DNA from: Elusimicrobia bacterium GWF2_62_30
Lineage (GTDB): Bacteria; Elusimicrobiota; Elusimicrobia; Elusimicrobiales; UBA9959
Reading direction: 5' to 3'
NCBI GenBank assembly: GCA_001799995.1
Contig: MGUK01000084.1
Location: 92,320-156,319, forward strand
Length of the DNA: 64,000 bases
Positions 18,235-49,359 of the stretch are shown here, piece after piece (the stretch's first letter is position 1; every line of letters starts with the position of its first letter). Position numbers and translations under genes: made by a program. The notes beneath the pieces were generated by a model, which made no database searches, was not told where the DNA came from, and saw only the letters and a list, made by a program, of their open reading frames with translations.

Positions 18235-18252
18235 GATTACCTCGATGTGGTC

Positions 18253-20344: not shown

Positions 20345-22773
<2,429 letters not shown>

Positions 22774-24288: not shown

Positions 24289-24307
24289 ACGAAGGAAGGG
24301 AACAATT

Positions 24308-25504
24308 ATGGGAAACATCATCTTTGGCGCGCTGCGGGCCGTACTCCCGGCGCTGATCCTCCTGGCCGCCTGCCGCGCGGAGGGCGTCTGCGCCCCGGTC
24401 TTTACCGAAGTCCAGGGCAAGGTCCTGTACCGCGCCTCGGCGGACCAGGAATGGGCGCAGGCAAGCCCGGGCCTGCGGGTGGCCGCGGGCGGCAGGGTAA
24501 AGACGGGCTGGTTCTCCTGGGCGGAGATCCGTTACGACGAGCGGACCATGATCGGGCTGGGGTTCGACACCGATCTCACCATCTATACCGCCAAGGCCGA
24601 CGAATATTTTTCCAAACTGGCCGCCGGGACCGTGCGCGCGGTGGTCAAGACCGCCATCAAGTTCACCATAAAGACGCCCGTTTCCGTGGTGGCGGTGAAG
24701 ACCAAGGGCACGCGTTTCGTGACCGTGGCTACGGCTTTGGGCCAGACCAAGGTAAAGGTCTTCTCCGGGATAGTGACGGTCAGCGACGCCAAGACCCGCG
24801 ACAAGGCCGTGAAGCCGGAAGAGACCCTCTCCATCGACGAGGAAGGCTCCGGGCCCCCGGAGCGGGCGGCGTCCGTTTCCCTGGGCGGGGGCTGGGCCAT
24901 CGACCCGCCGTACGGGTTCCGGGCCCGCGGCAAGACCGGCTGGGAGATGAAGACCTTCTCGCCTACCAGCGTAAGTTTCAAAGGCATCGAAGTGTCCATG
25001 GAGCGGACCGAAACCCTTTCGCTGGAGAAGCGGCAGGTCAGGTGGGAAAAGGGACAGGATTGGCCGATGCAGTGCCCCGCGGGGCTTTCGGCCCGCGAAG
25101 TAAGGATAGGCTCCCTCGAAGGCAAGCCTTTTGTTTCCTACGCCTGCCCGTCGCAGGACCTGGGCCGGGCCGAGTGGCAGAACCGCTATTATGAGATGCC
25201 GATAGAGGACAGCGCCGGAGCGGTTTCCTCCGCGCTGCGTATGCGCTATAAGCATTCCGTCCAGGCCAAGCTGCCCTCCGCCGCCGAGCTGGGCAAACTG
25301 TACGGCAGGCAGCCCGCCGGCGGCTACGCCGGCAGGTTCCAGGCCGACGTGATGCCCCTGATAGCCGCCGCCGCTAATAAAACGAAGCTGGACGGCCCGG
25401 GGATAAAAGCGGCCACCGAGTCCGTCCTGACCCTGTACCGCGAAATATGGGCCGGCAGCAATACCGACGAGTACAGCGGCAAAGTGGTGCCGATGATACA
25501 GTAG
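24308..25504 (+). CDS. Secreted FecR-domain protein with unknown C-terminal domain
   Basis: Signal peptide; 'VQGKV...VKTG..S.AEI......IGL', 'IKTP......KGTRF.......TKVKVFSG.VTV'. Confidence 0.75.
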   Translation: MGNIIFGALRAVLPALILLAACRAEGVCAPVFTEVQGKVLYRASADQEWAQASPGLRVAAGGRVKTGWFSWAEIRYDERTMIGLGFDTDLTIYTAKADEYFSKLAAGTVRAVVKTAIKFTIKTPVSVVAVKTKGTRFVTVATALGQTKVKVFSGIVTVSDAKTRDKAVKPEETLSIDEEGSGPPERAASVSLGGGWAIDPPYGFRARGKTGWEMKTFSPTSVSFKGIEVSMERTETLSLEKRQVRWEKGQDWPMQCPAGLSAREVRIGSLEGKPFVSYACPSQDLGRAEWQNRYYEMPIEDSAGAVSSALRMRYKHSVQAKLPSAAELGKLYGRQPAGGYAGRFQADVMPLIAAAANKTKLDGPGIKAATESVLTLYREIWAGSNTDEYSGKVVPMIQ

Positions 25505-25549
25505 GAACATAAACTGCGGGGAAATACCGCAGCTGGACGTGTCTGAACG

Positions 25550-27256: not shown

Positions 27257-28200
27257 AACTATTACCCGCCGCCGCCTGTTTCTCTCTCGCCGCGTTCCTG
27301 TTCTCCTGCGGGCGCGCAGGAGCCGACACCGGGCTTACCGGGGCGTCGATACTTACCCGCCCTGTCGGCGCGAGGTCCTCCGGGATGGGACGCGCGTTCA
27401 CGGCTGTGCCGGGGGACGCGGAGAGCTTGCTATATAACCCGGCCGGCCCGGGCCTTGCCGCGCGGAGCTCCGTGTATCTCGCGTACATGAACGGCTTCGC
27501 TGACGGCCGGTACGGGCTGGCCGCCCTCCCGCTCAGGCTCGGACCTCTTACGCTGACCCCGGCTTATCTCTACTATGATTCCGGCAAGATAACCCTGAAC
27601 CTTTCGGACGGCACGCAGGAAACGGTGACCGCCGAGTTGGACAAGGTGGCCATGATCTCCGGCGCATACTCCCCGGCGGCCGGACTGGCGGTGGGGGGCA
27701 CTTTGAAATTCACTACGATAGCCCTGGCCGAGACCGCGTCCGCCTCGGCCAGCCATTATGACCTGGGCATCCTGTACCGGATGGCTTCCGGGCTCAGCTT
27801 CGGCGCGGCTTCGCTTAATCACGGGGACTACATTAAATTCGAGGAAGAAGGGGATCCCGCGCCTGTGACAACGCGCGCCGGAGTTTCCTACAAAACAGAA
27901 TTCCGCCCGGAGCTGATAGGCAGCCCGGATGACATTTCTTACAGCGATATCGTGCTTTCCGCCGACTGGAGCAGGACCGCGAAAGAAAGCTCCTGTTACC
28001 AGGCCGGCGCGGAGGTGAACATGGAGATGAGCGTGGGGGTAATGCTCAGCCTGCGGGGGGGCTACCTGTTCGACAGGGACGACGAAGGGATGACCCTCGG
28101 TGTAGGGGTCAGGAAGAACGAGTGGAACTTCGGCGTCGGCTACGAAACTTCGAAAAACCTGTCCCCCAGGTTCCCGGTCTCGCTTTCCCTGGAATTCTGA
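27253..28200 (+). CDS. Second PorV/PorQ-family outer-membrane beta-barrel
   Basis: 'PVGARSSGMGRAFTAV...LYNPAG', 'LRGGY', terminal Phe; ATGA overlap with the peptidase stop. Confidence 0.8.
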   Translation: MKLLPAAACFSLAAFLFSCGRAGADTGLTGASILTRPVGARSSGMGRAFTAVPGDAESLLYNPAGPGLAARSSVYLAYMNGFADGRYGLAALPLRLGPLTLTPAYLYYDSGKITLNLSDGTQETVTAELDKVAMISGAYSPAAGLAVGGTLKFTTIALAETASASASHYDLGILYRMASGLSFGAASLNHGDYIKFEEEGDPAPVTTRAGVSYKTEFRPELIGSPDDISYSDIVLSADWSRTAKESSCYQAGAEVNMEMSVGVMLSLRGGYLFDRDDEGMTLGVGVRKNEWNFGVGYETSKNLSPRFPVSLSLEF

Positions 28201-28206
28201 CGCCCG

Positions 28207-29397
<1,191 letters not shown>

Positions 29398-29420
29398 GAT
29401 GGTTCTCCTTGGACCCGCCG

Positions 29421-30455
29421 TTAAGGCGTCAGAATAACTTTGCCGCATTTCTTCTCCCTGGAATTTATCAGGTCGAAGGCCTTCCTGAAATCCTTGAAAC
29501 GGTAGGTGTGCGTGACGGCGGGCCTGGGGTCGACGGCGCCGGATTTAAGCAGGCTTTCCATCTTGTACCAGCTGCGGAAGATCTCCCGCCCGGAAATGCC
29601 TTCCAGCCGTATGCCGCGGCGCACGATGTCGCCGGCGTAGTCTATGCTGAGGTTCGTGACCGGGAGGCCGAAAGCGACGAAGCGCCCGCCGGGCCGGAGG
29701 GCTTTCAGGCACAGTTCCACGGAGTCCGCCGCGCCGCTCATTTCCACTACCGCGTCCGCGCCTTCCGCCCCGCAGACCTTGGCGATCTTCTGCAGGCAGT
29801 CCTTTGCCGTTGGATCTATCGCCGTGGCCGCGCCCATTTTAAGGGCGAGGCGCCGGCGGTAAAGCGAGGCGTCCAGCGCTATCACTTTGCGCGCGCCGCC
29901 GGCTTTGGCGATGCCCGCCGCGAAAAGCCCCTGAGGCGCGCAGCCGGAAATGACCACCGTTTTGCCGACGATGTCTTCGGCCAGAATGGCGTGGACGGAA
30001 CTGCCGAACGGGCCCATCACGGCGCCGACGTCCTTAAGGGTGTCGTCGGTGTGCTTCCAGGAGCAGCGGGCGGGCACGGCGGCGTATTCGGCGAGCCCGC
30101 CGGGGATGTCGCGGCCGATAACGCGCAGGTCCTGGCAGATATGGCGCTGGTCGTTGCGGCATTGCCCGCAGGTGCCGCAGAAGATATGGGATTCGACGGA
30201 AACGAAATCCCCTTTTTCGAAGCCTTTCGCCAGGGAGCCGGTTTCCACCACTTCGCCGCAGAAGTCCTGGCCGAAGATAAAGGGGAGAGAGGGAGGGGTG
30301 AAAGCGGGGTCGGTCCAGTTGTAGAGCGCAAGGTCGCCGGAACTTATGGAGGCGGCGGTTACCCGGATCAGGAGCTCGTCCTTGTTGATTACGGGAACTT
30401 CCATGTCGCGGTAATCCGCGCCGCGCGCCCGCGAAGTCTTTACTATGGCTTTCAT
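29421..30455 (-). CDS. tdh: L-threonine 3-dehydrogenase-like MDR protein lacking catalytic Zn ligands
   Basis: Tdh-like throughout (VSVESHIFC, GISGRE, CGKVIL); structural CxxCxxCx7C kept; ICGTD->ISSGD, GHE->GQD, EP->GP. Confidence 0.8.
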   Translation of the reverse strand: MKAIVKTSRARGADYRDMEVPVINKDELLIRVTAASISSGDLALYNWTDPAFTPPSLPFIFGQDFCGEVVETGSLAKGFEKGDFVSVESHIFCGTCGQCRNDQRHICQDLRVIGRDIPGGLAEYAAVPARCSWKHTDDTLKDVGAVMGPFGSSVHAILAEDIVGKTVVISGCAPQGLFAAGIAKAGGARKVIALDASLYRRRLALKMGAATAIDPTAKDCLQKIAKVCGAEGADAVVEMSGAADSVELCLKALRPGGRFVAFGLPVTNLSIDYAGDIVRRGIRLEGISGREIFRSWYKMESLLKSGAVDPRPAVTHTYRFKDFRKAFDLINSREKKCGKVILTP

Positions 30456-37289: not shown

Positions 37290-38786
37290 CTAAAATTTAC
37301 CGCCGACTATCTTCTTGCCGGCTTCGTTGAGCGCGGCCGAGGTCTTGGGCGAGAAGGTTTCCGTATAGACACGCACCACGGGCTCCGTGCCGGAGGGCCG
37401 CAGGCCGAGCCAGCTCCCGTCCTTCATGATGAACTTGAACCCGTCCGTGTGGTCTATGCGCCAGACGGAGGCCCCCGCCAGGTTGAGCGGCGGATTCAAT
37501 TTGAGGCGCTCTACGAGGGATTCCATGTTCATGTTCCCGTCCAGGCGCAGGTTCGTCCGTGAAGTGATGAAGCTGCCGTGGCGCTTGTTCATGTCAGCGA
37601 TGATCTTCTTGATAGGTTTGCGCTCGTAGGCCACCATTTCCGCCATCAGCAGGCAGGCGAGGATGCCGTCCTTCTCCGGCACGTGGTTCATTATCGAGAG
37701 CCCGGCCGATTCTTCGCCGCCTATGATGTACTGGCCGGTGCGCAGGAGGTTGCCGATGTGCTTGAAGCCTACGGCGGTCTCGCGCACTTCCAGGCCGTGG
37801 TGCTTGGCCACCGCGTCCACGAAGTGGGAGGTCATCACCGAGCGGGCGACCTTGCCTTTCAGCCCGCGGTTCTTGACCAGGTGCTCCAGCACGAGGCCCA
37901 GCACCAGGTTCGGGGAGATCCAGGTCCCGTCGGAATCTATGACGCCGTAGCGGTCCGCGTCGCCGTCGCACGCGAGGCCCAGGTGGAGCTTGTTCTTGAG
38001 CACGGCGGCCTTCAGCCCGCCCAGGTTCTCTTCGTCGGTGTCCGGGGAGTGCCCGCCGAACAGCACGTCGCGCTCTTCCCGCAGGCCTATGACCTTGGCC
38101 CCCGCCTCTTCCAGGATAGGGCGCAGGTAGGTGCGCGCCGCCCCGTGGACGGAGTCGGCCGCGATCTTCAGCCCGGCTTTCTTTATGGCGGAAAGATCCA
38201 GCAGCGAAGCGATCTGCTTCTTATAGTTCGCGTGGAAATCCTCCACGCGGATGATCCCTGCGGAAACGCCGTGCTCGAAAGGTATATGCTTTTCCACTTC
38301 GGCGTTGGTGAGCGCCTGCACCCTGGCCTCGAGGTCGTTGGTGATCTCGCTTATGGCCGGGCCGCCCCAGTAGGGCGTCCACTTGAACCCGTTGTACTGC
38401 GGGGGGTTGTGGCTGGCGGTCAGCATCACGCCGCCGGCGGAGTTGGTCCGCATCACTTCCCACGCCACCACGGGGGTGGGGGTCTCGGTGTTGGAGATGG
38501 CGGCCGTTATGCTTTCGGCCGCGATGGCTTCAGCCACGGTCTTGGCGAAATCTTCGGAGAGATAGCGGGTATCGTAGCCTACTATGATCTTGGCCGTCTT
38601 GGGCGGCTGCTTGTCCAGTTTCTTCAGGTTGAGGAGGTATTCCTCGCCCTTGAAACCGTATTCCTTGTGCTCGTTCACGTGTTCCGCCACGGCGTGGCTG
38701 ACGCGGCGCAGGTTGTTTATATTGAATTCTTCGGCTATTATTGCCCTCCAGCCAGAGGTGCCGAATTTGATATTTGAGGTCGCCAT
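37290..38786 (-). CDS. Phosphoglucomutase/phosphomannomutase family protein
   Basis: FGTSGWR, TASHNP, DGDADR, GEES, RPSGTEP; start at MATSN. Confidence 0.93.
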
Positions 38787-38794
38787 AGCTTCTG

Positions 38795-38803
38795 AATATA
38801 GCA
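38795..38803 (-). promoter_or_regulatory. Extended -10 (TGcTATATT) 8 nt before the phosphohexomutase ATG
   Basis: Minus strand reads tgc-TATATT-cagaagct-ATG. Confidence 0.5.
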
Positions 38804-38892
38804 AAAAAGACTTTATAAAGCAAAGAATGGCCTACATTACGCCCGGGGCCGGCCGCCCGGCCCGTATTTTTTGTAGAATATACCGTATCCTG

Positions 38893-39369
38893 ATGAAGAA
38901 ATCACTTGTCATGGCCGGCCTGCTGGCGGCGGGCCCTTTATACGGGGCCGCGCCGGAGCCGGCGATGGAGCTCAAAGGCTATCTCTCCTCCTGGACGCAG
39001 AGCTGCCCCGGCGGCGCCTGCTCGCTGCCCAAACCGGGAGAGCGCAACCGGCCCGTCACGCTGCGGCTCGGGCTGCCGTCTTCCCCGGGGGAAGCTTCCG
39101 CCGTTAAGACTTTCCAGGAGCTTGCCCTGCCCGGGGGCGGCGTCCTGTCCGCGGGACTGGATTTTTTCGCCATCTGCCCGTACGCGGGCAGGGGCAACTG
39201 CGCCGGGCGCTATTTCCAGGCGCAGGTCTCCCTTTCCGGGCCCGCCGGCGCCTTCTGCGCCGCGGCCCTGAACCCCGGTGACTTCGATCCTTTCCCCGTG
39301 CTGATGTGCGCGGGCCTGGCCCCCGACGGTACCCGCTTCGGCGTCACGCTGCACCGGCTCCCGCTATAA
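38893..39369 (+). CDS. Hypothetical secreted Cys-containing protein
   Basis: Signal peptide from MKKSLV; six Cys; TAGAAT box just upstream. Confidence 0.7.
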   Translation: MKKSLVMAGLLAAGPLYGAAPEPAMELKGYLSSWTQSCPGGACSLPKPGERNRPVTLRLGLPSSPGEASAVKTFQELALPGGGVLSAGLDFFAICPYAGRGNCAGRYFQAQVSLSGPAGAFCAAALNPGDFDPFPVLMCAGLAPDGTRFGVTLHRLPL

Positions 39370-39372
39370 ATT

Positions 39373-40065
39373 ATGACGACGACAAAACCCGATGTGTTCT
39401 CCCGCAGCTGGCCGGTAGCCGAAACGGCGGCGTACTTCGCCGCGCTTACCGCGGCGGACGACGGGTTCGCGCCCGAAGCGGCGGCGGCGATGGAGCGCGG
39501 GGGCGTGCGCGACCGGGCCGTGACGTCGCTGGAAGGCAGGCTGCTGGAAGCGCTGGCAAGGATCTCAGGCGCGAGGAAGGCCGTGGAGATCGGGACGCTT
39601 TACGGCTACTCGGCGCACTGGATCGCCAGGGGCATGCCGGAGTCCGGCAGGCTTTATTCGCTTGAAAAGGACCCGGCCTGCGTGAACGCGGCCAAGGACG
39701 CGGTAGCGGCTTCGATGCTGTCGCGCAAGGTCACCGTCATGGAAGGCCCGGCGGCCGAAAGCCTGAAAACCCTTTCCAAGCTGGCGCCGTTCGATCTCTG
39801 CTTTATCGACGCCGACGCCGGGGAGTACCCGGATCACCTGCGCTGGGCCGCGGCCAACCTGCGCCCCGGCGGCCTGGTGCTGGCGAACAACGTCTTCATA
39901 GAAGGCAGGATCCCCGCGGCGGATTGCAGCGCGGCGGACAATACCCGCGCCCGCGCGATGCGGGAATTCTTCCACATCCTCTTCGATTCCGACCGCTTCG
40001 TGTCCGCCTCCGTTATCCCTACCCGGGAAGGAATGGCGCTCGGGGTAAAGACGCAGGCAAAGTGA
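39373..40065 (+). CDS. Class I SAM-dependent O-methyltransferase-like protein (CCoAOMT/YrrM type) with altered active site
   Basis: EIGTLYGYS, FIDAD, LRPGG; DADK->DADA, DN->NN. Confidence 0.82.
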   Translation: MTTTKPDVFSRSWPVAETAAYFAALTAADDGFAPEAAAAMERGGVRDRAVTSLEGRLLEALARISGARKAVEIGTLYGYSAHWIARGMPESGRLYSLEKDPACVNAAKDAVAASMLSRKVTVMEGPAAESLKTLSKLAPFDLCFIDADAGEYPDHLRWAAANLRPGGLVLANNVFIEGRIPAADCSAADNTRARAMREFFHILFDSDRFVSASVIPTREGMALGVKTQAK

Positions 40066-41222
40066 ATATCCGCACCCTGTCGCTGCTAACGCTGCTGCTG
40101 GCCTTCTCCGCCTGTACGGAGGAGGACGCGGCCAGGCCGCGCTTCGCGGCCAGGAACCAGCCGGCGCCGGAGCTGCGCCTGCCCAAACTGCTGAACGCCC
40201 CCGCGGCGGAAATACGCGGCTGGGACGCTCTCCGGGACAAGGCCGTGGTGCTGGAATTCTGGGCCACCTGGTGCGAGGAATGCGTGGACTCCATCCCGCA
40301 CCTCAACGACCTGGCGGCGGCTGCCGGCGACGCCCCCGTGGTCTTCATCTCGGTCACCGACGAGTCCGAAGCGGACGTGAAGGAATTCCTCAAGTCCCAT
40401 CCCATGAAGGGCTGGATAGCTCCGGAGGCCGGGGCGGACATTTTCAGGGCCTTCCGGGTTTACGGGCGGCCGCACACGGTACTTATCTCCAGGGACGGCA
40501 GGGTGGCCGATATCACCGTCCCCGGCGCGGTTACGGAGGAGGCGGTGAAAAGGCTCCTCAGCGGCGCTCCGGCGGCCCAGGCGGGGCGCTCCGCCCCGGC
40601 GGCCGCGGACGTGCTGGCCGAATTCTATCTGGCGGAGGCCGCCGTTTCCGTCTCCAGCGCCAGCTACGGCCCCGACCGCATGAGCGGCGCGGGCATACCG
40701 CTTAAGCACGCTTTTGATTTCGTCTTCGGCCAGGCCGACAAGCTGGAGGTCAAGCCGGAGGCCGCGCGGGCGATGAACGGTTTTTACGATATACGCTTCC
40801 GCTTCCCGAAGGGCCGCGGTGAAAAGTACCGCAGGGAGTTCTTCCTGAAAGGGCTGGAAACAGCGCTGGGGCTGAAGGTGAAAGACCTTTCAAAGGAATC
40901 CGAAGTGTACCTGCTTAAAAGGGCGCCCGGCGGGCCGCTCAACGTCAGGAAGAAGGAGACCCCCGGCGCGGCCGGCTCCGACGGGGGGAAATGCGCGGTG
41001 GATGGCGGGTCGTTCGGCGTGCTCGGCGCCGCGCTGGCCGAGAGGCTGGGCGAACCGGTGCTCGACGAGACCGGGCTTAAAGGTTATTACGCCTATGCCT
41101 TCGATTTTAAAAGCGGCGATAAAAAAACTTTCAACGCCGAATTGAATTCCCAGCTGGGGCTGCGGCTCGAGCGGCGCCTGCGCAAGATCCGCGTGCTCGA
41201 GATCAGCCGGCCGGAACCATGA
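40062..41222 (+). CDS. Lipoprotein: TlpA-like redoxin domain fused to DUF3738/TIGR03435-like domain
   Basis: Lipobox FSAC; EFWATWCEEC; 'PVLDETGLKG.Y...LGLRLE'; GTG start overlapping upstream TGA. Confidence 0.75.
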   Translation: MNIRTLSLLTLLLAFSACTEEDAARPRFAARNQPAPELRLPKLLNAPAAEIRGWDALRDKAVVLEFWATWCEECVDSIPHLNDLAAAAGDAPVVFISVTDESEADVKEFLKSHPMKGWIAPEAGADIFRAFRVYGRPHTVLISRDGRVADITVPGAVTEEAVKRLLSGAPAAQAGRSAPAAADVLAEFYLAEAAVSVSSASYGPDRMSGAGIPLKHAFDFVFGQADKLEVKPEAARAMNGFYDIRFRFPKGRGEKYRREFFLKGLETALGLKVKDLSKESEVYLLKRAPGGPLNVRKKETPGAAGSDGGKCAVDGGSFGVLGAALAERLGEPVLDETGLKGYYAYAFDFKSGDKKTFNAELNSQLGLRLERRLRKIRVLEISRPEP

Positions 41223-41644
41223 AAAGATTGTCCTCCAAACCCACCGTCTATCTGATCGACGGCTCCAATTTCTCCATGCGCTTCTGGGAGAAGGCCGGCG
41301 GCGTCTCGGCGGAACAGCTCGAAAAGGAATTCGTGAACTGGCTCGCGGAAGTAGCGCGCGCGGAGCTGCTGCGGGCTTCGTGCTTCCGGGTGGTGTTCGA
41401 CGGCCCCTGCCGCCGGAGCGGGCCGGCCGGCCCTTCGATAACCATTTATTACAGCGATTCGGAGCCGGCCGACGAGATGCTGGTGGAGCGCGGCTACTTC
41501 ATGCAGAACGAGGGGATCCGCGCCATCATCGTCACTTCTGACAACGGCCTGCGCGACCGCGCCGCCGCCGAGGGCGTAAAGACCATGAACTGCGAGACTT
41601 TCCTTAAGCTCGCCGGGGACGAGCTCCGCCGGGAGAGCCGCTGA
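41219..41644 (+). CDS. NYN-domain (YacP-like, PIN fold) ribonuclease
   Basis: IDGSN, VVFDG, ADE, VTSD. Confidence 0.8.
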   Translation: MKRLSSKPTVYLIDGSNFSMRFWEKAGGVSAEQLEKEFVNWLAEVARAELLRASCFRVVFDGPCRRSGPAGPSITIYYSDSEPADEMLVERGYFMQNEGIRAIIVTSDNGLRDRAAAEGVKTMNCETFLKLAGDELRRESR

Positions 41645-41735
41645 CCCGCCCGCGGGCATTTTTGCGGATATTCTGCCGCCGTAAATTTGTAGAATATTGT
41701 GCTGACGCGGGCCGGATGCCGCGGGCGTGTTTTCA

Positions 41736-41819
41736 GGGCTTGTGGCGGAACTGGTAGACGCGACGGACTTAAAATTCGTTGGCCGCAAGGCCGTGTGGGT
41801 TCGAGTCCCACCATGCCCA
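41736..41819 (+). tRNA. tRNA-Leu (anticodon TAA)
   Basis: D-loop with GG, anticodon loop CTTAAAA, long variable arm ggcc-gcaa-ggcc, T-loop GGTTCGAGTCC; CCA not encoded. Confidence 0.93.
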
Positions 41820-41843
41820 CACACTGAACGGTTTTGAACGATC

Positions 41844-42482
41844 ATGGAGGCTTCTATGGGATTTGCACCTGCGGGGATAAAACTGATAATCGGCGGCATA
41901 ATCGCGGCCGCTGGCGGCGGCGCTTTAATGGGCTGCTGCCGCTGGGCGGGCATCCCGCTGCTCTTTCTCGGCGTATTCTTCGCCGGCTTCTCGGCCTATT
42001 TCTTCCGCGACCCTGAGCGGCCCAAAACTTTCGCGCCCGGCGAGATAGCCTGTCCCGCGGACGGCACCGTGCTGACCATCAAGAACGAGGGCACCCCGGG
42101 CATTACCGTCATCCGCATTTTCCTTTCCGTCCTGAACGTGCACGTGCAGCGCTCGCCGCTGGAAGGCAAGGTGGAGAAGGTGAAGTTCACGCAGGGGAAG
42201 TTCGCCATCGCCTACAAGCCGGAGGCCGCCGATAACCAGCGCAACCTCATCCGGATAACCGGCGCCGGCGGTCGCGCCGTCGAGATAGAGCAGATAACCG
42301 GCTCCATCGCCCGCCGCATCGCCTGCTATGTGAAAGAGGGCCAGGAAGTGAAGGCCGGCGAGCGGGTAGGCATGATCTATTTCGGTTCGCAGGTAGCCGT
42401 CTACCTGCCCGAGTCGGCGAAGATAAGCGTGAAGCCCGGCGACAAAGTGGCCGGCGCCGAAACCGTGCTGGGCCAGTGGTGA
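41844..42482 (+). CDS. psd: Phosphatidylserine decarboxylase proenzyme (short type)
   Basis: FFRDPER, PADG, IFLSVLNVHVQRSP, FGS cleavage site. Confidence 0.93.
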   Translation: MEASMGFAPAGIKLIIGGIIAAAGGGALMGCCRWAGIPLLFLGVFFAGFSAYFFRDPERPKTFAPGEIACPADGTVLTIKNEGTPGITVIRIFLSVLNVHVQRSPLEGKVEKVKFTQGKFAIAYKPEAADNQRNLIRITGAGGRAVEIEQITGSIARRIACYVKEGQEVKAGERVGMIYFGSQVAVYLPESAKISVKPGDKVAGAETVLGQW

Positions 42483-42494
42483 GGTGAAACTAAC

Positions 42495-43313
42495 ATGGAA
42501 AACATTGAAATAATCCCCGAAAAAAGGCGGATCGATATTGCGAAGCTTAAAAAGACCGGGGCGGTGGTCCTGCCCTCCATCTTTACCATCGCCAATATGG
42601 CCTTCGGTTTCTTCTCCATCCTCTCCGCCTCGGAGGGGGAATATGTGCGGGCCTCGTGGTTCCTGATCGTTTCCTACGTGATGGACATGCTCGACGGACG
42701 CGTGGCGCGCCTGGTGCACGGCGAGAGCTCCTTCGGCGTGGAGATCGACTCCCTTTCCGACTGGATCTCTTTCGGCATAGCGCCCGCCTACCTGATCTAC
42801 AAGTTCGTGCTCAAGGATTACGGCTTCTGGGGCTACCCCGTGGCGTTCCTTTACGTCCTGTGCGGGGCTTTGCGCCTTGCCCGCTACAACGTGAAATCAC
42901 ACTTCGGCGGCAGCGACAAGGATTATTTCCAGGGGCTGCCCATCCCGGCGGCGGCCGGCATCCTGGTCTCCTTTGTGCTCGCCTACAGCATGATAGAGGG
43001 CGAAAGCGGCAGCCGCGGCATCCAGATAGTGATGGACAGGATGCCGTTCGTGTACGGCGTGGTGCCCTTCATCATGATCGCGCTCGCCCTGCTTATGGTG
43101 TCTTCCGCGCCCTACGCGGCTTTCAAGGGCGACATGCTCAAGCCCAACTCCATAAAGGGCATCGTGCTGATAACGGCGGTGCTCTCGATGATAGTGGCGT
43201 ACCCGCAGGACGCGCTGTTCGTCTTCTTCTCGGTTTACGCGCTTTCCGGAGTGCTCGCCGGGTTCTACGGGGCTTTCAAGAAGCTCTTCAGGGGCAAGGA
43301 AGCCGGCTGCTAG
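42495..43313 (+). CDS. pssA: CDP-diacylglycerol--serine O-phosphatidyltransferase
   Basis: D.LDGRVAR...G...DSLSD motif, RLARYN, FQGLPIP. Confidence 0.93.
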   Translation: MENIEIIPEKRRIDIAKLKKTGAVVLPSIFTIANMAFGFFSILSASEGEYVRASWFLIVSYVMDMLDGRVARLVHGESSFGVEIDSLSDWISFGIAPAYLIYKFVLKDYGFWGYPVAFLYVLCGALRLARYNVKSHFGGSDKDYFQGLPIPAAAGILVSFVLAYSMIEGESGSRGIQIVMDRMPFVYGVVPFIMIALALLMVSSAPYAAFKGDMLKPNSIKGIVLITAVLSMIVAYPQDALFVFFSVYALSGVLAGFYGAFKKLFRGKEAGC

Positions 43314-43330
43314 CGCTCCCGTACTCCAGG

Positions 43331-43358
43331 AAAAAGCCCGGGTTCGCCCGGGCTTTTT
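43331..43358. terminator. Bidirectional terminator
   Basis: aaaaagcccggg-ttcg-cccgggcttttt. Confidence 0.88.
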
Positions 43359-44833
43359 TATTTGCGGGGAAAAAGAGGGGGGACTTCCCGGGGCTCCGCC
43401 CCGTCGGTACGGGTTTTGCCGATGCCGAGCTGCAGTTGCATCCGGCTGGCCGTGTCGGGCATGAAAGGGTCGAGCCAGCCGGCGATGAGGCGCAGGCCCC
43501 AGATCATCTCCCGGAGGAAAGCCTTCAGCGCTTCCGGATCTTTTTTCGCCAGCTCCAGCGGTTTCCTGGCGTCCAGCAGGCCGTTCAGCCTCCCCAGCCC
43601 CAGCCAGATCTTTTCGAGGGCGGCTCCGAACCGCAGGCTCTCCATGTTCCTGTGCAGCTCCGGCGTCCACGAAGCTAATTCCCTGAAGACCGCGGAGTCC
43701 TCCGGCCTTTTCGGCAGGCGGTGGTCCAGGTACTGCGCCGCCATGCTCGTTACGCGCGAAAAAAGATCGCCCAGGTCGTTGGCCAGGTCGAAATTATAGC
43801 GGCGGTGAAAAGCCGTCATGGAGAACTCCCCGTCGGACCCGAAGGCCACCTCCCTGAAAAGGAAATAGCGCAGCGCGTCCACGCCGTAGTCCCTGACCAC
43901 GTCCTCGGCTTTGATGTAGTTGCCCCGCGTCCTGGAAATCTTGCGGCCGTTCATGGTCAGCCAGCCGTGGGCGTATACCCTGCGCGGCAGCTCCAGGCCC
44001 AGCGCCAGGAGCAGGGCCGGCCAGAGAACGCCCTGCGAACGGTGCGACTCCTTTCCCGCCAGGTGCACGTCGGCGGGCCAGATGGAATTGAAATCCGGCC
44101 CCGCCCCTTCCGGGGTGAAGCCCGGGCCGGTGGCGTAGCCGAGCAGCTCTTCGAACCGGGAGTGGACGGCGTGGTCCGGGTCTGACTTTACCGGCACGCC
44201 CCACGGCGCTTTCGTGCGCGAAACGGGGACGTCCCTGAGCCCCGCCCTGGCGAGATAGTCCAGTTCGCTCGCGCCGGGCCGGGGGGAAAGGAAGTCAGGG
44301 TGCTGCGCGTAATGCTCCTGCAGCGCCGGCCCATATTTGGAGAGCCTGAAAAAATAGGCGGCCTCCCTGGCCCGCTCCAGGGGCTTGCCGTGGACGGGGC
44401 ACTTCCCGTCCTTCAGCCCGTCCTCGTCGTGAAAATCGCCGCAGGCGGTACAATAGGGGCCGTCCTGGACGCCGCGGTAGATGTCCCCCGCCGCCAGGAG
44501 CTTTTCAAACACCGCCTGTACCGCCGCCTGGTGAGCCGCGTCGGTGGTGCGTAAAAAATTATCGTACCTGACGTTCAGGGTTTTCCAGAGGGCGCGGAAA
44601 TCGGCGGCTGCCGCGTCGCACCAGGCCTTGGGCTGCATGCCGCGTTCCCGGGCGGTCCTTTCGATGCCGGCGCCGTGCTCGCCCGTTCCAGTCTGCAGGA
44701 AGACCGTGATATCTCGGGAGCGCAGGTGGCGGGCCAGCACGTCGGCCGCGAGCGTAGTATAGGCGTGCCCCATGTGGGGCTTGTCTTCGACGGAATAAAG
44801 AGGTGTGGTGATGTAAAACTTCTTCGTGTGCAT
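43358..44833 (-). CDS. metG: Methionyl-tRNA synthetase (MetRS1)-like protein with degenerate Met pocket and KMSKS
   Basis: YITTP, HMGHAYTT, Zn knuckle, ALRYFL, LANDLG, LFPR; DEHG->GEHG, YVW->HSR, KMSKS->KISRT. Confidence 0.82.
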   Translation of the reverse strand: MHTKKFYITTPLYSVEDKPHMGHAYTTLAADVLARHLRSRDITVFLQTGTGEHGAGIERTARERGMQPKAWCDAAAADFRALWKTLNVRYDNFLRTTDAAHQAAVQAVFEKLLAAGDIYRGVQDGPYCTACGDFHDEDGLKDGKCPVHGKPLERAREAAYFFRLSKYGPALQEHYAQHPDFLSPRPGASELDYLARAGLRDVPVSRTKAPWGVPVKSDPDHAVHSRFEELLGYATGPGFTPEGAGPDFNSIWPADVHLAGKESHRSQGVLWPALLLALGLELPRRVYAHGWLTMNGRKISRTRGNYIKAEDVVRDYGVDALRYFLFREVAFGSDGEFSMTAFHRRYNFDLANDLGDLFSRVTSMAAQYLDHRLPKRPEDSAVFRELASWTPELHRNMESLRFGAALEKIWLGLGRLNGLLDARKPLELAKKDPEALKAFLREMIWGLRLIAGWLDPFMPDTASRMQLQLGIGKTRTDGAEPREVPPLFPRK

Positions 44834-44844
44834 TGGGCGAAGGC

Positions 44845-45954
44845 TCAGCGCGCGCCGGCGTCCACCAGGCTTTCCAGCCGGAGGCCGGCCCTTTCGCTTT
44901 CCAGCAGGGCCGTCTGCAGGATCTGCATATAGGAAACGTTGCGGTCCGCCATGCGGCGCAGGTCGAGGGTGCGCCGCAGCACCGCGCCCAGCCTGTCCTT
45001 GGCCGGGGGGGCGGAGGCGCGCCAGGCGGCGCGCAGGCGCCCTAGGATAAGGTCCAGCAGGGTCTTTACCTCTTCGCGGGCCGCGTGGCTGTCCCTGGGC
45101 AGCCCCGCCGTGAACTTGAAGACCTTCGCCGGGTCGGCAGGGTTCAGCTTCGCCAGCCGCGCCAGGAAGCCGCGGGCCTCCGCGGCCTTTTCAAAGGACC
45201 CCCTGGACAGGGCGGCCAGTCGCGCGGCTTCGGAGGGTTCCGCGCCCTGCGCGATCATCAGCTCTGTTATCACCGGGGCCGGCAGCGGGGAGAATTCTAC
45301 CGAGCAGCAGCGGGAAAGTATCGTGGGTAAAAGCGAGTTTTTGCGGGAAACGGTGAGGATGACCACGGTGTTCTTAGGCGGGTCTTCAAGGGTCTTGAGC
45401 AGCGCGTTCTGGGCCTGCGGCACCAGCGCTTCCGCGTCCCGGACGATGAAGATCTTCCACGGGGACATCATCGGTTTCTGCTGCGCCCAGCGCGTCAGTT
45501 CCCGGATCGTGTCTATCTTTAAATTGGCGCTTTCGTTCTCGTCGAGCAGCGCGGCCTGGAAAACGGTGTCGACCACGCGGATATCCGGGTGCGCGCCGCT
45601 CAGGGCCTGGCGGCAGGAAAGGCACACGCCGCAGGAATCCCCGGGTGCCGCCGCGGCGGCGACGGCCTGGTCGGCGGGAGAGGGCGCGGGCGCGGCTTCC
45701 GGGGCCGGCCCCTCCGGCGCCATGGAGAAAAGCCCGCCGTCATCTTCGGGCTGGGGCGCTAAAGAACGCGGTTTCTCTTCGACGAAAGGCACGCGGGAGC
45801 AATTGAGCGCCGAGGCGAACTCCGCCGCGGCCGGGAATTTGCCTATGCCGGGGACGCCGTGGAAGAGCATGGCCGGCGGCACGCGCCCGGTCTCGACGAG
45901 GGAGCGCAGCCGCTCTATCGTCTTGTCCTGGCCTTTGATGGTGGAAAAAGACAT
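44845..45954 (-). CDS. holB: DNA polymerase III subunit delta'
   Basis: CGVCLSC, HPD, AQNALLKTLEDPP, LPTILSRC; follows tmk. Confidence 0.9.
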   Translation of the reverse strand: MSFSTIKGQDKTIERLRSLVETGRVPPAMLFHGVPGIGKFPAAAEFASALNCSRVPFVEEKPRSLAPQPEDDGGLFSMAPEGPAPEAAPAPSPADQAVAAAAAPGDSCGVCLSCRQALSGAHPDIRVVDTVFQAALLDENESANLKIDTIRELTRWAQQKPMMSPWKIFIVRDAEALVPQAQNALLKTLEDPPKNTVVILTVSRKNSLLPTILSRCCSVEFSPLPAPVITELMIAQGAEPSEAARLAALSRGSFEKAAEARGFLARLAKLNPADPAKVFKFTAGLPRDSHAAREEVKTLLDLILGRLRAAWRASAPPAKDRLGAVLRRTLDLRRMADRNVSYMQILQTALLESERAGLRLESLVDAGAR

Positions 45955-45955
45955 G

Positions 45956-46585
45956 TTATTTCTTAGCCCCGCGCCCGAGAACCGGCTGAACGCGCGCGCG
46001 GATCTCGGCCTGGATGGCCTCTATCGGGCGGCCGGCGTCCACGCGCGTCATGCCGGGCTTGCGCGCCAGCAGCTTGTAGGCGCGGTTGACCCGGCGGCGG
46101 AAAGCGTCCGGCGCGCGCTCAATGCGGTCCCGGCCGTTCCGGAGATGTTCGCGCTGGGCGAAGATCCTGTCGGGGATGTCGAAGACTATGGTCAGGTCCG
46201 GCTTCAGGTTCATGGTCGCTATCTTGTTGAGAGTTTCAACGGTCTTAAGGTCCAGCCCCCGGCCGTAGCCCTGGTAGGCCGTGGTGGAAAGGGTGTAGCG
46301 GTCCGAGATTATGACTTTGCCGGCCTTCAGGGCGGGGATTATCTTTTCAAGGGTGTGCTTTATCCTCGAGGTCTCGTAGAGGAAAAGTTCGGTCATGGGC
46401 TCTATGACGCTTTTGGGGTCCAGCAGGATCTTCCGGATCTGTTCGGACAGGCGCGTGCCGCCCGGCTCGCGGGTGACTACGACTTCGCGGCCCCGCTCTT
46501 CGAGCCAGGTTTTGAGCAGCGCGGCCTGCGTGGATTTGCCGGAGCGATCCGGCCCTTCCAATACTATAAAAAGCCCTTTTTTCAT
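45956..46585 (-). CDS. tmk: Thymidylate kinase
   Basis: EGPDRSGKST, TREPGG, DRY...AYQG.GRG. Confidence 0.95.
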   Translation of the reverse strand: MKKGLFIVLEGPDRSGKSTQAALLKTWLEERGREVVVTREPGGTRLSEQIRKILLDPKSVIEPMTELFLYETSRIKHTLEKIIPALKAGKVIISDRYTLSTTAYQGYGRGLDLKTVETLNKIATMNLKPDLTIVFDIPDRIFAQREHLRNGRDRIERAPDAFRRRVNRAYKLLARKPGMTRVDAGRPIEAIQAEIRARVQPVLGRGAKK

Positions 46586-46699
46586 GAAGTTAGCCTATAT
46601 GATAGCAAAGCCCGGGCCCTCTGGCAAAAAAGGTTCTCCGTAAAGTTAAACCTGTGGAGTCGTGCGGGCTGACGCGGGGAGCGGAATGCAACCGGTGGT

Positions 46700-46835
46700 C
46701 GGGGCCTGTCCCGGGGACCGGAACGCAAAACGCGCTAGGGCACACCGTGCCCGTCGCTCATCCTCCTCCTTCGCCGCTTACGCAAGGCTCAGTCGTCGGA
46801 AGGTTTTGCTAACCCGGTCCCCGGGGCAGGCCCCG
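46700..46835. ncRNA. Putative structured element (long rod-like hairpin), class unknown
   Basis: 22-bp terminal inverted repeat with one G-U, inner gcaaaac/gttttgc helix, two internal hairpins. Confidence 0.45.
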
Positions 46836-46854
46836 GGCTTCTAAGTTATCGTGT

Positions 46855-49359
46855 TTACGAGCACTCGGAATAGCCGCAGTCGTGGCAGGCCGGGCCGGAG
46901 CAGCCCGACTCGTAGCTGACGTTGGAGGAATAGCACTTCGGACAGTACTGCGTCCGGGACACTTCCCACAGCTCCAGCTTTTCCTGCCCGTTCAGCTCCT
47001 GGTCGCTGGCTATCATCCCGCTGCGCTTGAGGTGGCTGCGCAGCGCCACCGCTATGCCGTGGGCCACGGAATTTATGCGGTTCTCGCCGAGGCCGACGGG
47101 CCTGTCGCCCTTCACGGAGTTCAGGTGCTTGATCACCTTTATGGGGTCGCCGCCCTCCTCGAGGTACTTCGACAGCAGGATGCCGATCAGCGACGTCAGG
47201 CCGCTTATCTCGGTGCCGAGCGGCGGCATATTGGTGAACACCTGGTAGGGGCCGTGCTCGTTGTAGTTGATGTGCACGTGCAGCGGGCCGTAGCCGGTCT
47301 TCAGCTGGAAATATTCCGACGACACGCCGAAGGACTGGTAGGCGGTCTTTTTCTTCTTGACCTTGGCCTGCGCCCCGGAGCCGATGTTGAGCACCTGCTG
47401 CGCTTTGCAGCCGTCGCGGTAGACGGTGAGCCCTTTGCAGCCCAGCTTGTGCGCGATCACGTAGGCGTTCTTCACGTCCTCCGCGCTGGCCGAGGAGGAC
47501 ATATTGATGGTCTTGGAGACGGCGTTGTCGATGTGCTTCTGGAAGGCCGCCTGGATCTTGATGTGGTTCTCTATCGACACGTCGTGCGCCGTGGGGAAAA
47601 GGTCCTGGACCTCTTTGGGGATCTCGTGGACGCCGCGCACCGATTTGTGGTTGGCCTCCACTTTCTTCCAGAGCGCCTTCTCGTCCATGCCGAAGAACTC
47701 GTGCTTCTGGGCCAGCCGCTTGAAGAGCGTGTTGACCTCGAAGAACGTGTCTTTCGCTTCCGGCTCTTTGTTGTTCTTCACGGCGTCGAGGGCCTTCGCG
47801 TTGTAGCGCGTGTAAGCTATCGCGAAGAACGGCTCTATCCCGGAGCCCTGCAGGCCGGCCGCTATCGCTATGGTCCCGGTGGGGGCGATGGTGGTGCGGG
47901 AGGCGTTGCGCGGCCTGGCGGCGACGCCGCGGAAATATTTGCTCTCCGCGTCGTAGATCGAGCCCTTCCAGTTGGGGAAGACGCCGCGCTCTTTCGCGAG
48001 TTCCTCGGAGGCTTCCAGCGACTTGTCGTTGATGAACTTCATCACTTCTTCCGCTTTTTTCAGGCCTTCAGGGCTGTCGTAGGCGACGCCCAGTTTGACG
48101 GCCGCTTCGGCCCAGCCCATTATGCCCAGGCCGATCTTGCGGTTGCCCTTGGCGATCTTTTCGATCTCGGGCAGGGGATAGTTGTTTATCTCTATGACGT
48201 TGTCGAGGAACCTTATCGCCTTGGCGACGGTCCCGGCCAGGCGGTCCCATTCCATCTCGCCCCTGGTCAGTTCCCCTGTGACGTAGTTCGCCAGGTTGAT
48301 CGAGCCCAGGTTGCAGGATTCCCACGGCAGCAGCGGCTGCTCCCCGCACGGGTTGGTGGCCTCCACCTGGCCCAGCGCCGGGGTGGGGTTGGAATTGGTC
48401 TCGTTGATGCGGTCCATGAAGACGATGCCGGGGTCGCCGGTGGCCCAGGCGGAATCCACCATGGAGTTGAAGATCTCGCGGGCCTTTACCGTGCCGGCGG
48501 CGTCGCCGGTGCGGGGGTTCTTCAGGTCGTAGGAAGAATTGGTTTCCACGGCCTGCATGAATTTGTCGTCTAGGGCGATGGAAATATTGAAGTTCTCCAG
48601 CACGCCCTGCTGGCCTTTGATGGCGATGAAGTCCTTGATCTCCGGGTGCCAGTAGGGCAGGATCCCCATGTTCGCGCCGCGCCGGGTGCCGCCCTGCTTC
48701 ACCACGTCGGTAAGCTTGTCGAAAAGCTTCATGAAGGAGATGGCGCCGCTCGCCACGCCGTTGGTCTTCTTGACCACGTCGCCCTTGGGGCGCACGCGGC
48801 AGAAGGAGAACCCGGTCCCGCCGCCGGATTTCTGTATCAGGCTCTGCGCCGTCAGCGCCTTGGCGATGCCCTCCATGGAATCCGGCACCGGCAGCACGTA
48901 GCAGGCCGAAAGCTGCTGCAGCTCGCGCCCGGCGTTCATGAGAGTGGGGGAGTTGGGGAGGAAGTCGAAATCCGCCATGAGATTGTAGAATTCGGCCGCG
49001 CGGCGGTCCACAGTTTCCCGGGCGGCGTCCACGCCCCGGTAGGTGCGCTCCAGGTTCTCCACGAACTTCAGGAAATTGGCCTCGCGCTCGGATGATTCCG
49101 CCAGCCCGTCATGGAACAGCATGGCGCGCGTGCGTTCCGCTCCGGCGCCGGTCTCCAGGGCGCGCGTGCGCACGCCGTCGAAGATGCCCCAGTCGCCCGC
49201 CTTGGGATGGAAGACCAGCTCCGACAGCGCTATGTTGTGGGAGACCCGCTCGAAGAGCTCCTCCACGGAGCGGTCGTCGCGCAGGTACTTGTCCTTTATC
49301 ACTTTGGACTGGTTCTCGCTGAGGGTTATCTTCTTTCTTTCGGCAGAAATGGTTTTCAT
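46855..49359 (-). CDS. nrdJ: Adenosylcobalamin-dependent (class II) ribonucleotide reductase
   Basis: PNSPTLMNAG, LSAC, TNPCGEQ, CNLGS, IAPTGTI, DNAVSKTIN, C-terminal CxxC...CxxC. Confidence 0.95.
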   Translation of the reverse strand: MKTISAERKKITLSENQSKVIKDKYLRDDRSVEELFERVSHNIALSELVFHPKAGDWGIFDGVRTRALETGAGAERTRAMLFHDGLAESSEREANFLKFVENLERTYRGVDAARETVDRRAAEFYNLMADFDFLPNSPTLMNAGRELQQLSACYVLPVPDSMEGIAKALTAQSLIQKSGGGTGFSFCRVRPKGDVVKKTNGVASGAISFMKLFDKLTDVVKQGGTRRGANMGILPYWHPEIKDFIAIKGQQGVLENFNISIALDDKFMQAVETNSSYDLKNPRTGDAAGTVKAREIFNSMVDSAWATGDPGIVFMDRINETNSNPTPALGQVEATNPCGEQPLLPWESCNLGSINLANYVTGELTRGEMEWDRLAGTVAKAIRFLDNVIEINNYPLPEIEKIAKGNRKIGLGIMGWAEAAVKLGVAYDSPEGLKKAEEVMKFINDKSLEASEELAKERGVFPNWKGSIYDAESKYFRGVAARPRNASRTTIAPTGTIAIAAGLQGSGIEPFFAIAYTRYNAKALDAVKNNKEPEAKDTFFEVNTLFKRLAQKHEFFGMDEKALWKKVEANHKSVRGVHEIPKEVQDLFPTAHDVSIENHIKIQAAFQKHIDNAVSKTINMSSSASAEDVKNAYVIAHKLGCKGLTVYRDGCKAQQVLNIGSGAQAKVKKKKTAYQSFGVSSEYFQLKTGYGPLHVHINYNEHGPYQVFTNMPPLGTEISGLTSLIGILLSKYLEEGGDPIKVIKHLNSVKGDRPVGLGENRINSVAHGIAVALRSHLKRSGMIASDQELNGQEKLELWEVSRTQYCPKCYSSNVSYESGCSGPACHDCGYSECS

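Follow-up and report, generated by a model that had tools for sequence, protein, structure and literature searches.

The locus and its product

The window analysed here is a 64,000-nucleotide (nt) stretch of contig MGUK01000084.1 from Elusimicrobia bacterium GWF2_62_30, a groundwater member of the Elusimicrobia whose genome comprises 2.9 Mb in 99 contigs and is 84% complete. On its minus strand a tmk-holB-metG operon ends in a gene for a type-1 methionyl-tRNA synthetase (MetRS1; the MetRS1/MetRS2 typing is used in published abstracts) that is intact as an open reading frame (ORF) and has lost most of the residues by which such enzymes hold methionine (Met). This gene, the state of its orthologues and the second MetRS of the same genome are the subject of the present study. 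Throughout, T1 denotes the window-type (type-1, MetRS1) gene, T2 the second MetRS, and G with a number a genome of the same Elusimicrobia family, the source genome being G000; the coordinates of all features are collected in Table 1.

The coding sequence of the window gene opens with ATG and contains zero internal stops, and its neighbours within 2.7 kb are tmk, holB, NrdJ, pssA and psd. Over 43300-43686 and 44095-44900 the sequence recurs unchanged in a second sample of that study (positions 43687-44094 are uncovered there), so the odd motifs described below are not a one-off assembly error. Against profile models the protein scores 253.3 bits with Pfam tRNA-synt_1g, 23.2 bits with PF19303 (MetRS anticodon domain), slightly below the model cut-off of 23.5, and 509.5 bits with the NCBIfam MetRS1 equivalog PRK12267, below its cut-off of 598. 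The closest solved structure is Aquifex aeolicus MetRS (2csx, E 5.2e-116, residues 4-465 aligned), with further full-length matches to the MetRS1 of Thermus thermophilus (1a8h, E 1.8e-107) and Staphylococcus aureus (7wpi, E 3e-102), and same-genus orthologues are 63-69% identical. An AlphaFold2 model built on a 68-sequence alignment reached a mean pLDDT (predicted local distance difference test) of 90.9 and a predicted template modelling (TM) score of 0.91, and its top Foldseek matches were MetRS1 structures at TM 0.89-0.93 (7wpi, TM 0.91). As modelled, the protein is a confidently folding MetRS1 scaffold that keeps the HIGH signature, most residues of the adenosine pocket and the Zn knuckle.

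Table 1. Features of the tmk-holB-metG locus, with positions counted from the first letter of the window; residue numbers are those of the window protein
Feature	Positions	Strand	Observation
pssA	42495..43313	+	Convergent downstream neighbour; adjoins holB directly in relatives that lost T1
Hairpin GCCCGGG / CGAA / CCCGGGC	43331..43357		GC-rich, between an A run and a T run, straight after the TAA stop; read by eye from the sequence
Pseudo-MetRS1	43358..44833	-	Catalytically degenerate type-1 MetRS; intact coding sequence of 491 amino acids (aa); last gene of the tmk-holB-metG operon
Residues 424-426	43556..43564	-	KPL for KPW; anticodon-stacking Trp (W426) replaced by Leu
Residue 356	43766..43768	-	Asp for an Asn invariant in 50 canonical orthologues
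Residues 298-302	43928..43942	-	KISRT for KMSKS; M299I, K301R, S302T
Residues 260-267	44033..44056	-	GKESHRSQ (canonical GKEIFRFH); pocket I263 to S, F266 to S, H267 to Q; ATP-site G260, K261, E262 kept
Residues 223-230	44144..44167	-	VHSRFEEL (canonical VYVWFDAL); pocket W226 to R, A229 to E; also Y224H, V225S, D228E
Residues 128-148	44390..44452	-	Single CP-domain Zn knuckle; ligands C128, C131, C145, H148 all kept
Residues 48-54	44672..44692	-	TGTGEHG (canonical TGTDEHG); D51, binder of the Met amino group, replaced by Gly
Residues 20-23	44765..44776	-	HMGH, the class I HIGH signature, kept
Residues 11-16	44786..44803	-	PLYSVE (canonical PLYYVN); pocket-closing Y14 to Ser, N16 to Glu
holB	44845..45954	-	DNA polymerase III delta'; stop 11 nt ahead of the pseudo-MetRS1 start
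tmk	45956..46585	-	dTMP kinase; first gene of the conserved tmk-holB-metG block

Replaced and retained residues

The contacts made by a working MetRS1 are described for the S. aureus enzyme in the accessible part of a structural study (PMC9071491), according to which the Met side chain lies among P11, W237, A240, L241, Y244, I273, F276 and H277, the Met amino group bonds the backbone oxygen of residue 12 and D51, and Y14 and W237 swing inward to close the pocket. The ATP site, in the same text, is formed by G22, S26, A270, E272, H299-I302, K308 and M309. Four of the 11 Met-pocket residues are retained in the window protein, the replacements being Y14S, D51G, W226R, A229E, I263S, F266S and H267Q; of the 17 residues of the HIGH, ATP and KMSKS sites it retains 12. 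From residue 11 it reads PLYSVED where canonical proteins have PIYYVND or PLYYVND. The K, M, S and K of KMSKS are invariant or nearly so in 51 canonical orthologues, and the catalytic second Lys is Arg in the window protein. On the anticodon side, we take N356 to be the equivalent of Escherichia coli N391, which together with R395 and W461 presumably reads the anticodon; the Arg equivalent to R395 is R360 in the window sequence (FSR). That E. coli Y15, D52, W253, H301 and W461 correspond to the Met and anticodon contacts is likewise numbering that we assume.

Measured against the 142 alignment columns that are invariant in 50 canonical family orthologues, the window protein departs at 24 (Y14S, N16E, D51G, Y123Q, E132G, R187G, F194L, S203P, V209A, T222A, Y224H, V225S, W226R, D228E, A229E, I263S, F266S, H267Q, W292L, M299I, K301R, N356D, W426L and K483E) and keeps the other 118, mostly outside the contact residues. 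By our count, 14 departures fall in the Met or ATP site and 2 in the anticodon site, and the departures cluster chiefly at the KMSKS loop, in the Met pocket and at the anticodon site, more than expected by chance. An earlier note on this DNA, made from the letters alone, had listed the main replacements in a full 491-aa ORF with HMGH and a Zn knuckle at a tmk-holB locus. Every listed replacement is present in the residue alignment to 2csx and the family motif tables, and the observation as a whole is confirmed. The claim of the same note that the protein cannot make Met-tRNA is strongly suggested by the replaced pocket, KMSKS and anticodon residues, and the protein probably no longer binds Met in the known way or reads CAU.

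A second MetRS in the same genome

A search of G000 for a second canonical metG, which the earlier note had recommended, found one, so the window gene is not the sole metG of its genome. Only two MetRS-grade matches to PF09334 exist there: T2 (509.8 bits), on contig C33 (G000:C33), and the window gene (two pieces, 138.4 and 120.6 bits). T2 passes NCBIfam PRK00133 (620.6 bits, cut-off 587), has P. abyssi MetRS as its best structure match (1rqg, E 5.8e-159; the E. coli enzyme at about 1e-85) and carries the expected MetRS motifs; by these signatures it is a canonical archaeal/E. coli-type MetRS. Its ORF (L001:1468-3114, plus strand) is truncated by the contig end at 549 aa, and an identical 561-aa protein is recorded from other assemblies. 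At the KMSKS position T2 of G000 has QFSKS, with the first Lys replaced by Gln and the second kept, while P. abyssi MetRS has KFSTS. A 455-aa ORF at L001:100-1467 (plus strand), membrane-protein-like by sequence and with no NCBIfam match at E <= 1e-5, ends where T2 starts, its stop abutting the T2 start.

In G004 and G023 the two genes share a contig and a strand, T2 immediately preceding tmk-holB-T1 at a distance of about 2.3 kb from T1 (G004:C9, T1 24082-25548 and T2 27846-29480; G023:C75, T1 16910-18376 and T2 20627-22261). This position could be the original insertion site or could represent a second insertion.

State of both genes across the family

We surveyed 80 genomes of the family, G000 among them. 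Of these, 30 carry T2 (14/43 in the window's genus, 2/3 in genus g12, 7/7 in g15 and 7/7 in g17), after exclusion of the two weakest of 32 search matches (G058, G070), which fall on T1 itself. T1 is present in 69, and every T1 locus of the family with enough flank shows the order tmk-holB-T1. Because of this synteny the window gene is the vertically inherited copy, as had been supposed.

In the raw counts the state of T1 differs with the presence of T2. Where T2 is lacking and T1 is present (n = 47), 46 copies of T1 are canonical and one is degenerate, and none of these 46 has the window-type pocket or anticodon changes. Where both are present (n = 22), nine copies are canonical or near-canonical, three of these nine with Y14C as the only change (G004, G023, G086), and 13 are degenerate (G000, G002, G010, G012, G013; G062 to G067; G089, G093). 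The association between T2 and degeneration is drawn from about three independent events, together with the consideration that an essential enzyme is not losable without a replacement. Six relatives apparently keep two fully canonical MetRS genes (G003, G022, G071, G011, G052, G061). In these lineages T1 and T2 may not be fully redundant, since the ratio of non-synonymous to synonymous rates (omega, dN/dS) of T1 is still 0.059 there.

Replaced residues differ between degenerate orthologues, and no new pocket motif is common to them. Degenerate copies of g15 and g17 have lost KMSKS wholly and HIGH partly, and the Zn-knuckle segment is gone from G089 and G093 by in-frame deletions. H20, G22, H23, T26, G260, H289, G290 and W291 are kept in all five degenerate copies of the window's genus, the window protein among them. 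T1 was not found in eight T2 carriers, in five of which the slot after holB was inspected. In G084 and G092 holB lies about 70 nt and about 167 nt from pssA with T1 absent between them, in G090 the distance is about 545 nt and short T1-like remnants lie between, and in G005 and G053 no T1-like sequence was found within 1.5 kb downstream of holB.

Selection on degenerate copies

No internal stop interrupts any of the 69 T1 matches, the 14 degenerate copies included, and the 13 degenerate copies that were compared show in-frame indels only. Because NG86 pairwise dS saturates at about 0.6-1.0, we relied on maximum likelihood codon models (GY+F3X4) and on close pairs. For the degenerate T1 of G000, G010, G012 and G013 omega was 0.114 (T2 of the same genomes, 0.055), and for six degenerate g15 genomes it was again 0.114 (T2, 0.041); T2 carriers with canonical T1 gave 0.059 for T1 and 0.047 for T2, and the canonical T1 of T2-lacking genomes gave 0.043. 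Fixing omega at 1 lowered the log-likelihood from -5018.46 to -5310.66 in the first degenerate set (twice the difference, 584) and from -5844.80 to -6240.67 in the g15 set (792). Relaxation differed between domains: omega was highest for the CP/Zn part (0.18-0.20) and for the KMSKS-bearing second Rossmann half (0.12-0.14), and lowest for the first Rossmann half (0.057-0.086; 0.086 in the window's set) and, in the window's clade, for the anticodon-binding domain (0.060).

Part of the low omega of the sets could predate inactivation. Sister pairs whose ancestor was already degenerate have NG86 omega of 0.15 (G064-G067), 0.24 (G063-G066) and 0.73 (G012-G002, at dS 0.04). A roughly 92%-identical relative, recovered as contigs from another study over 43374-44012 only, has I299, R301, D356 and L426 in common with the window gene, and differs from the window at 18 synonymous and 13 non-synonymous codons (dN 0.041, dS 0.246, omega 0.17, Fisher p 1.3e-5); its depth is about 3, and any errors in the reads would raise omega and not lower it. 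Of random substitutions in the window coding sequence 2.83% create a stop, and neutral change amounting to 0.3 substitutions per site should have produced about 12.5 stops, the probability of none being 3.6e-6. The degenerate copies are not decaying neutrally and are under purifying selection. The conserved scaffold proposed in the earlier note is thus borne out by omega 0.114, the lack of stops and frameshifts and the value of 0.17 against the close relative, and the simple decay that it had contemplated, with orthologue dN/dS near 1 and frameshifts, is not what the orthologues show.

Mutational bias in the replaced positions

At codon positions 1 and 2, the 24 changed invariant columns comprise 16 changes that raise the guanine-plus-cytosine (GC) content, one that lowers it and seven that leave it equal. 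Degenerate copies generally have raised GC at both positions, and their Gly/Ala/Arg/Pro fraction is 0.32-0.43 versus 0.24-0.32 in canonical copies. Replacements that recur across clades (Y to H, C, S or R; V to A; I to S; F to L; W to R, G or L; D to G or A) are single GC-raising steps, and for this reason they do not suggest a convergent new pocket; read from the sequences, the changes appear to fit relaxed constraint under GC pressure.

Trees and the origin of T2

On the T1 tree the window protein falls inside its genus clade on an end branch of 0.43 (median 0.08), and the degenerate state needs three changes, occurring in at least three separate clades, each nested among T2 carriers. A single ancestral inactivation for the five degenerate copies of the window's genus, grouped on this tree at SH-aLRT 95, was considered and given up as a firm reading. 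Residues common to these copies are GC-raising single steps expected under drift, and since the gene trees also conflict, single and multiple inactivation within the genus are both possible.

Much shallower than that of T1, the T2 tree disagrees with the T1 and holB trees alike. It groups G000 with G005 and G003; G013, G002 and G012 with G022 and g17; and G010 with G086 and G071. Between G012 and G002, dS is 0.043 for T1 and 0.326 for T2, a mismatch which implies that one of the two loci was recently exchanged. In a phylum sample of 201 genomes (190 outside the family), T2-type matches occurred in eight, four of them outside the family at 38-44% identity. In a large protein collection the family T2 proteins are 74-100% identical to that of G000, and no donor was identified there, the next best proteins being at most 57% identical, about 686 aa long, equipped with an extra PF01588 domain and spread over several other phyla. 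By these comparisons T2 is a foreign gene, one that seems also to move within the family.

Other features of the window

The hairpin at 43331..43357 looks like a bidirectional intrinsic terminator common to the pseudo-MetRS1 gene and the convergent pssA. Upstream of tmk lies a gene for a B12-dependent ribonucleotide reductase, NrdJ (46855-49359, minus strand; TIGR02504, 668.8 bits), with a Cys-rich tail. The 2-kb bin of highest GC in the window is 44001-46000 (0.670), spanning holB and the pseudo-MetRS1 gene, and from 38500 to 49000 both strands carry many long overlapping alternative-frame ORFs of 100-570 aa, as expected at 60-67% GC.

Discussion

We consider the window gene to be a catalytically dead relic of xenologous displacement that is still held as a folded pseudoenzyme, and give this reading a probability of roughly 0.6. 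On this account the foreign T2 would have taken over methionine charging, leaving the inherited T1 without its enzymatic job. Once T2 covered the essential function, residues in contact with the substrates would have been released from constraint, and GC-biased mutation would have overwritten the KMSKS loop, the Met pocket and the residues that read the anticodon. Elsewhere the protein is kept by purifying selection, in our view as a pseudoenzyme whose remaining role would be non-catalytic and most plausibly the binding of RNA/tRNA or nucleotide, inherited from the ancestral enzyme. Some sister lineages have shortened or deleted the gene and would no longer need that role. We infer that the selection reflects such a role and goes beyond the cost of misfolding alone.

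Several observations weigh against this account. The window protein passes TIGR00398 (metG, equivalog_domain) at 373.4 bits, above the cut-off of 336.35. Co-residence of T1 and T2 in G000, where they lie on different contigs, depends on binning; in G004 and G023 they share a contig. A search of sequencing runs listed no RNA run with the locus, and the expression of the protein is deduced from operon structure, the gene being the last of an essential operon. One genome, G054, has a degenerate T1 and no T2 was found in it (87% complete, 580 contigs; its genus-mates carry T2), and neither T1 nor T2 was found in G049, G056 and G057, a limit of incomplete metagenome assemblies. An independent-pairs test of T2 presence against T1 degeneration had 5-6 usable pairs and no power (sign test p = 1); the raw two-by-two counts are 13 degenerate and 9 canonical copies with T2, and 1 and 46 without it. 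The holB and T2 trees conflict with the T1 tree, with G010 placed elsewhere and canonical G074 beside G013, and because of this disagreement the time of inactivation in the window's lineage is uncertain. The youngest degenerate pair, G012-G002, has an omega of 0.73 at dS 0.04 over 382 codons, which is compatible with neutrality. Finally, the repeated deletion of T1 indicates that any residual role is dispensable in some lineages.

A bolder form of the displacement account, which we put forward tentatively and regard as somewhat improbable, is that disabled MetRS1 has been exapted at least three times in the family as a non-catalytic tRNA- or nucleotide-binding factor, a MetRS-derived counterpart of HisZ. 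The anticodon domain and first Rossmann half of this factor would then act in translation or methionine metabolism, as a regulator or a chaperone. HisZ and YadB are described, in the available text of PMC7373986, as aminoacyl-tRNA synthetase (aaRS) paralogues with other roles. Like HisZ, the window protein is an aaRS scaffold under selection without aminoacylation residues, and it may conceivably have a HisZ-like regulatory role; unlike HisZ, it is encoded by a recently disabled copy of the orthologue itself, and its dead residues vary between species. HisZ belongs to an old, separate paralogue family and has a partner, HisG, and the neighbourhood of the window gene (tmk, holB, pssA, psd) suggests no partner protein.

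Unlikely, in our judgement, though the most serious competitor, is the view that the protein does nothing useful and its gene is a relic bound for deletion, with frame and fold kept only through the cost of misfolding during co-expression with tmk and holB, and with part of the low omega perhaps dating from before inactivation. Several of our results suit this view: replacements vary per copy and follow GC pressure, omega is 2-3 fold above that of working copies and reaches 0.73 in G012-G002, and sister genomes show shortening (G089, G093), a remnant (G090) and clean deletion (G084, G092). It sits badly with the position of the gene at the end of its operon, where a nonsense or frameshift mutation would carry no polar cost and would even remove the cost of misfolding; yet not one of the 14 degenerate copies has such a mutation. 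Also against it stand the rejection of omega = 1 at omega 0.114, the values of 0.15 and 0.24 in already-degenerate sister pairs and of 0.17 between the window's lineage and a relative with the same dead motifs, and the 118 of 142 canonical-invariant columns kept.

Quite improbable is a neofunctionalised enzyme, which would bind ATP through HMGH, GKE, HGW and K298/R301 and use a remodelled, now polar pocket (S14, G51, R226, E228, E229, S263, S266, Q267) to adenylate or ligate another substrate, in the manner of MshC or of a secondary-metabolism MetRS paralogue. The HIGH and ATP-site residues kept in the window protein and its four degenerate genus-mates, and the omega of 0.086 in the first Rossmann half, would agree with it, and class I aaRS paralogues with non-translational ligase roles do exist, according to the portion of PMC2922099 that treats them. 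The degenerate copies, however, have no pocket motif in common; those of g15 and g17, without KMSKS and with HIGH partly lost, are equally constrained; the changes run in the direction that GC-driven drift would take; KMSKS has Arg for its catalytic second Lys; and the neighbours tmk, holB, pssA and psd form no biosynthetic cluster. The repurposing that the earlier note held possible is not borne out: replacements vary per copy and follow GC pressure, and sister lineages deleted the gene. That the window protein is still a working MetRS with an unusual active site, sharing the load with T2, is very improbable: it passes TIGR00398 with HIGH and Zn knuckle intact and six relatives apparently keep two canonical MetRS genes, but Gly has taken the place of D51, which in MetRS1 provides the sole side chain holding the amino group of Met, seven pocket residues out of 11, W226, H267 and Y14 among them, are replaced, as are the anticodon residues N356 and W426, and none of these changes occurs in the 46 canonical T1 of T2-lacking genomes.

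Compared with known systems, the window protein resembles bacterial MetRS1 (2csx, 1a8h, 7wpi) in full-length homology, predicted fold, single Zn knuckle and HIGH, and canonical orthologues of the family in its tmk-holB-metG locus; it differs from bacterial MetRS1 in the replacement of 7/11 pocket residues, KMSKS, N356 and W426, in scoring below the PRK12267 cut-off, and in not being the working MetRS of its genome. Gentry, Brown and colleagues reportedly described, in 2003, a transfer of MetRS2 into Gram-positive pathogens with MetRS1, with both enzymes active and the gain linked to inhibitor resistance. The Elusimicrobia case would be similar to that reported gain in that a MetRS1 lineage acquires a MetRS2-type gene and some genomes keep both, and unlike it in that the resident MetRS1 is catalytically dead in at least three clades and deleted in others. 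A further MetRS-like protein thought to act outside translation is the secondary-metabolite paralogue of Aravind, de Souza and Iyer (2010), which their paper presents as probably archaeal in origin and as occurring in strict linkage with genes for a cupin and a lysine N6-monooxygenase (PMC2922099). The window gene, by contrast, is a bacterial MetRS1 orthologue within tmk-holB-metG next to pssA and psd, and lacks the linkage by which that text defines the paralogue. A literature search, with most subscription journals outside its reach, returned no paper on a catalytically dead MetRS kept after displacement, nor on MetRS in Elusimicrobia.

Should the dead copy prove to have a role, we could find no earlier example of a pseudoenzyme derived from MetRS. 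Source annotations name several of the degenerate copies 'methionine--tRNA ligase', so that pathway and marker-gene inferences credit the wrong gene. Horizontal replacement of an aaRS is usually inferred from end states only, whereas this single Elusimicrobia family preserves the whole series, from one enzyme to two working ones, a hit at Y14, a dead but constrained copy as in the window, a shortened copy, a remnant and clean deletion. The family thereby offers a natural system in which to study how an essential gene gets displaced, and why a disabled enzyme stays under selection for long.

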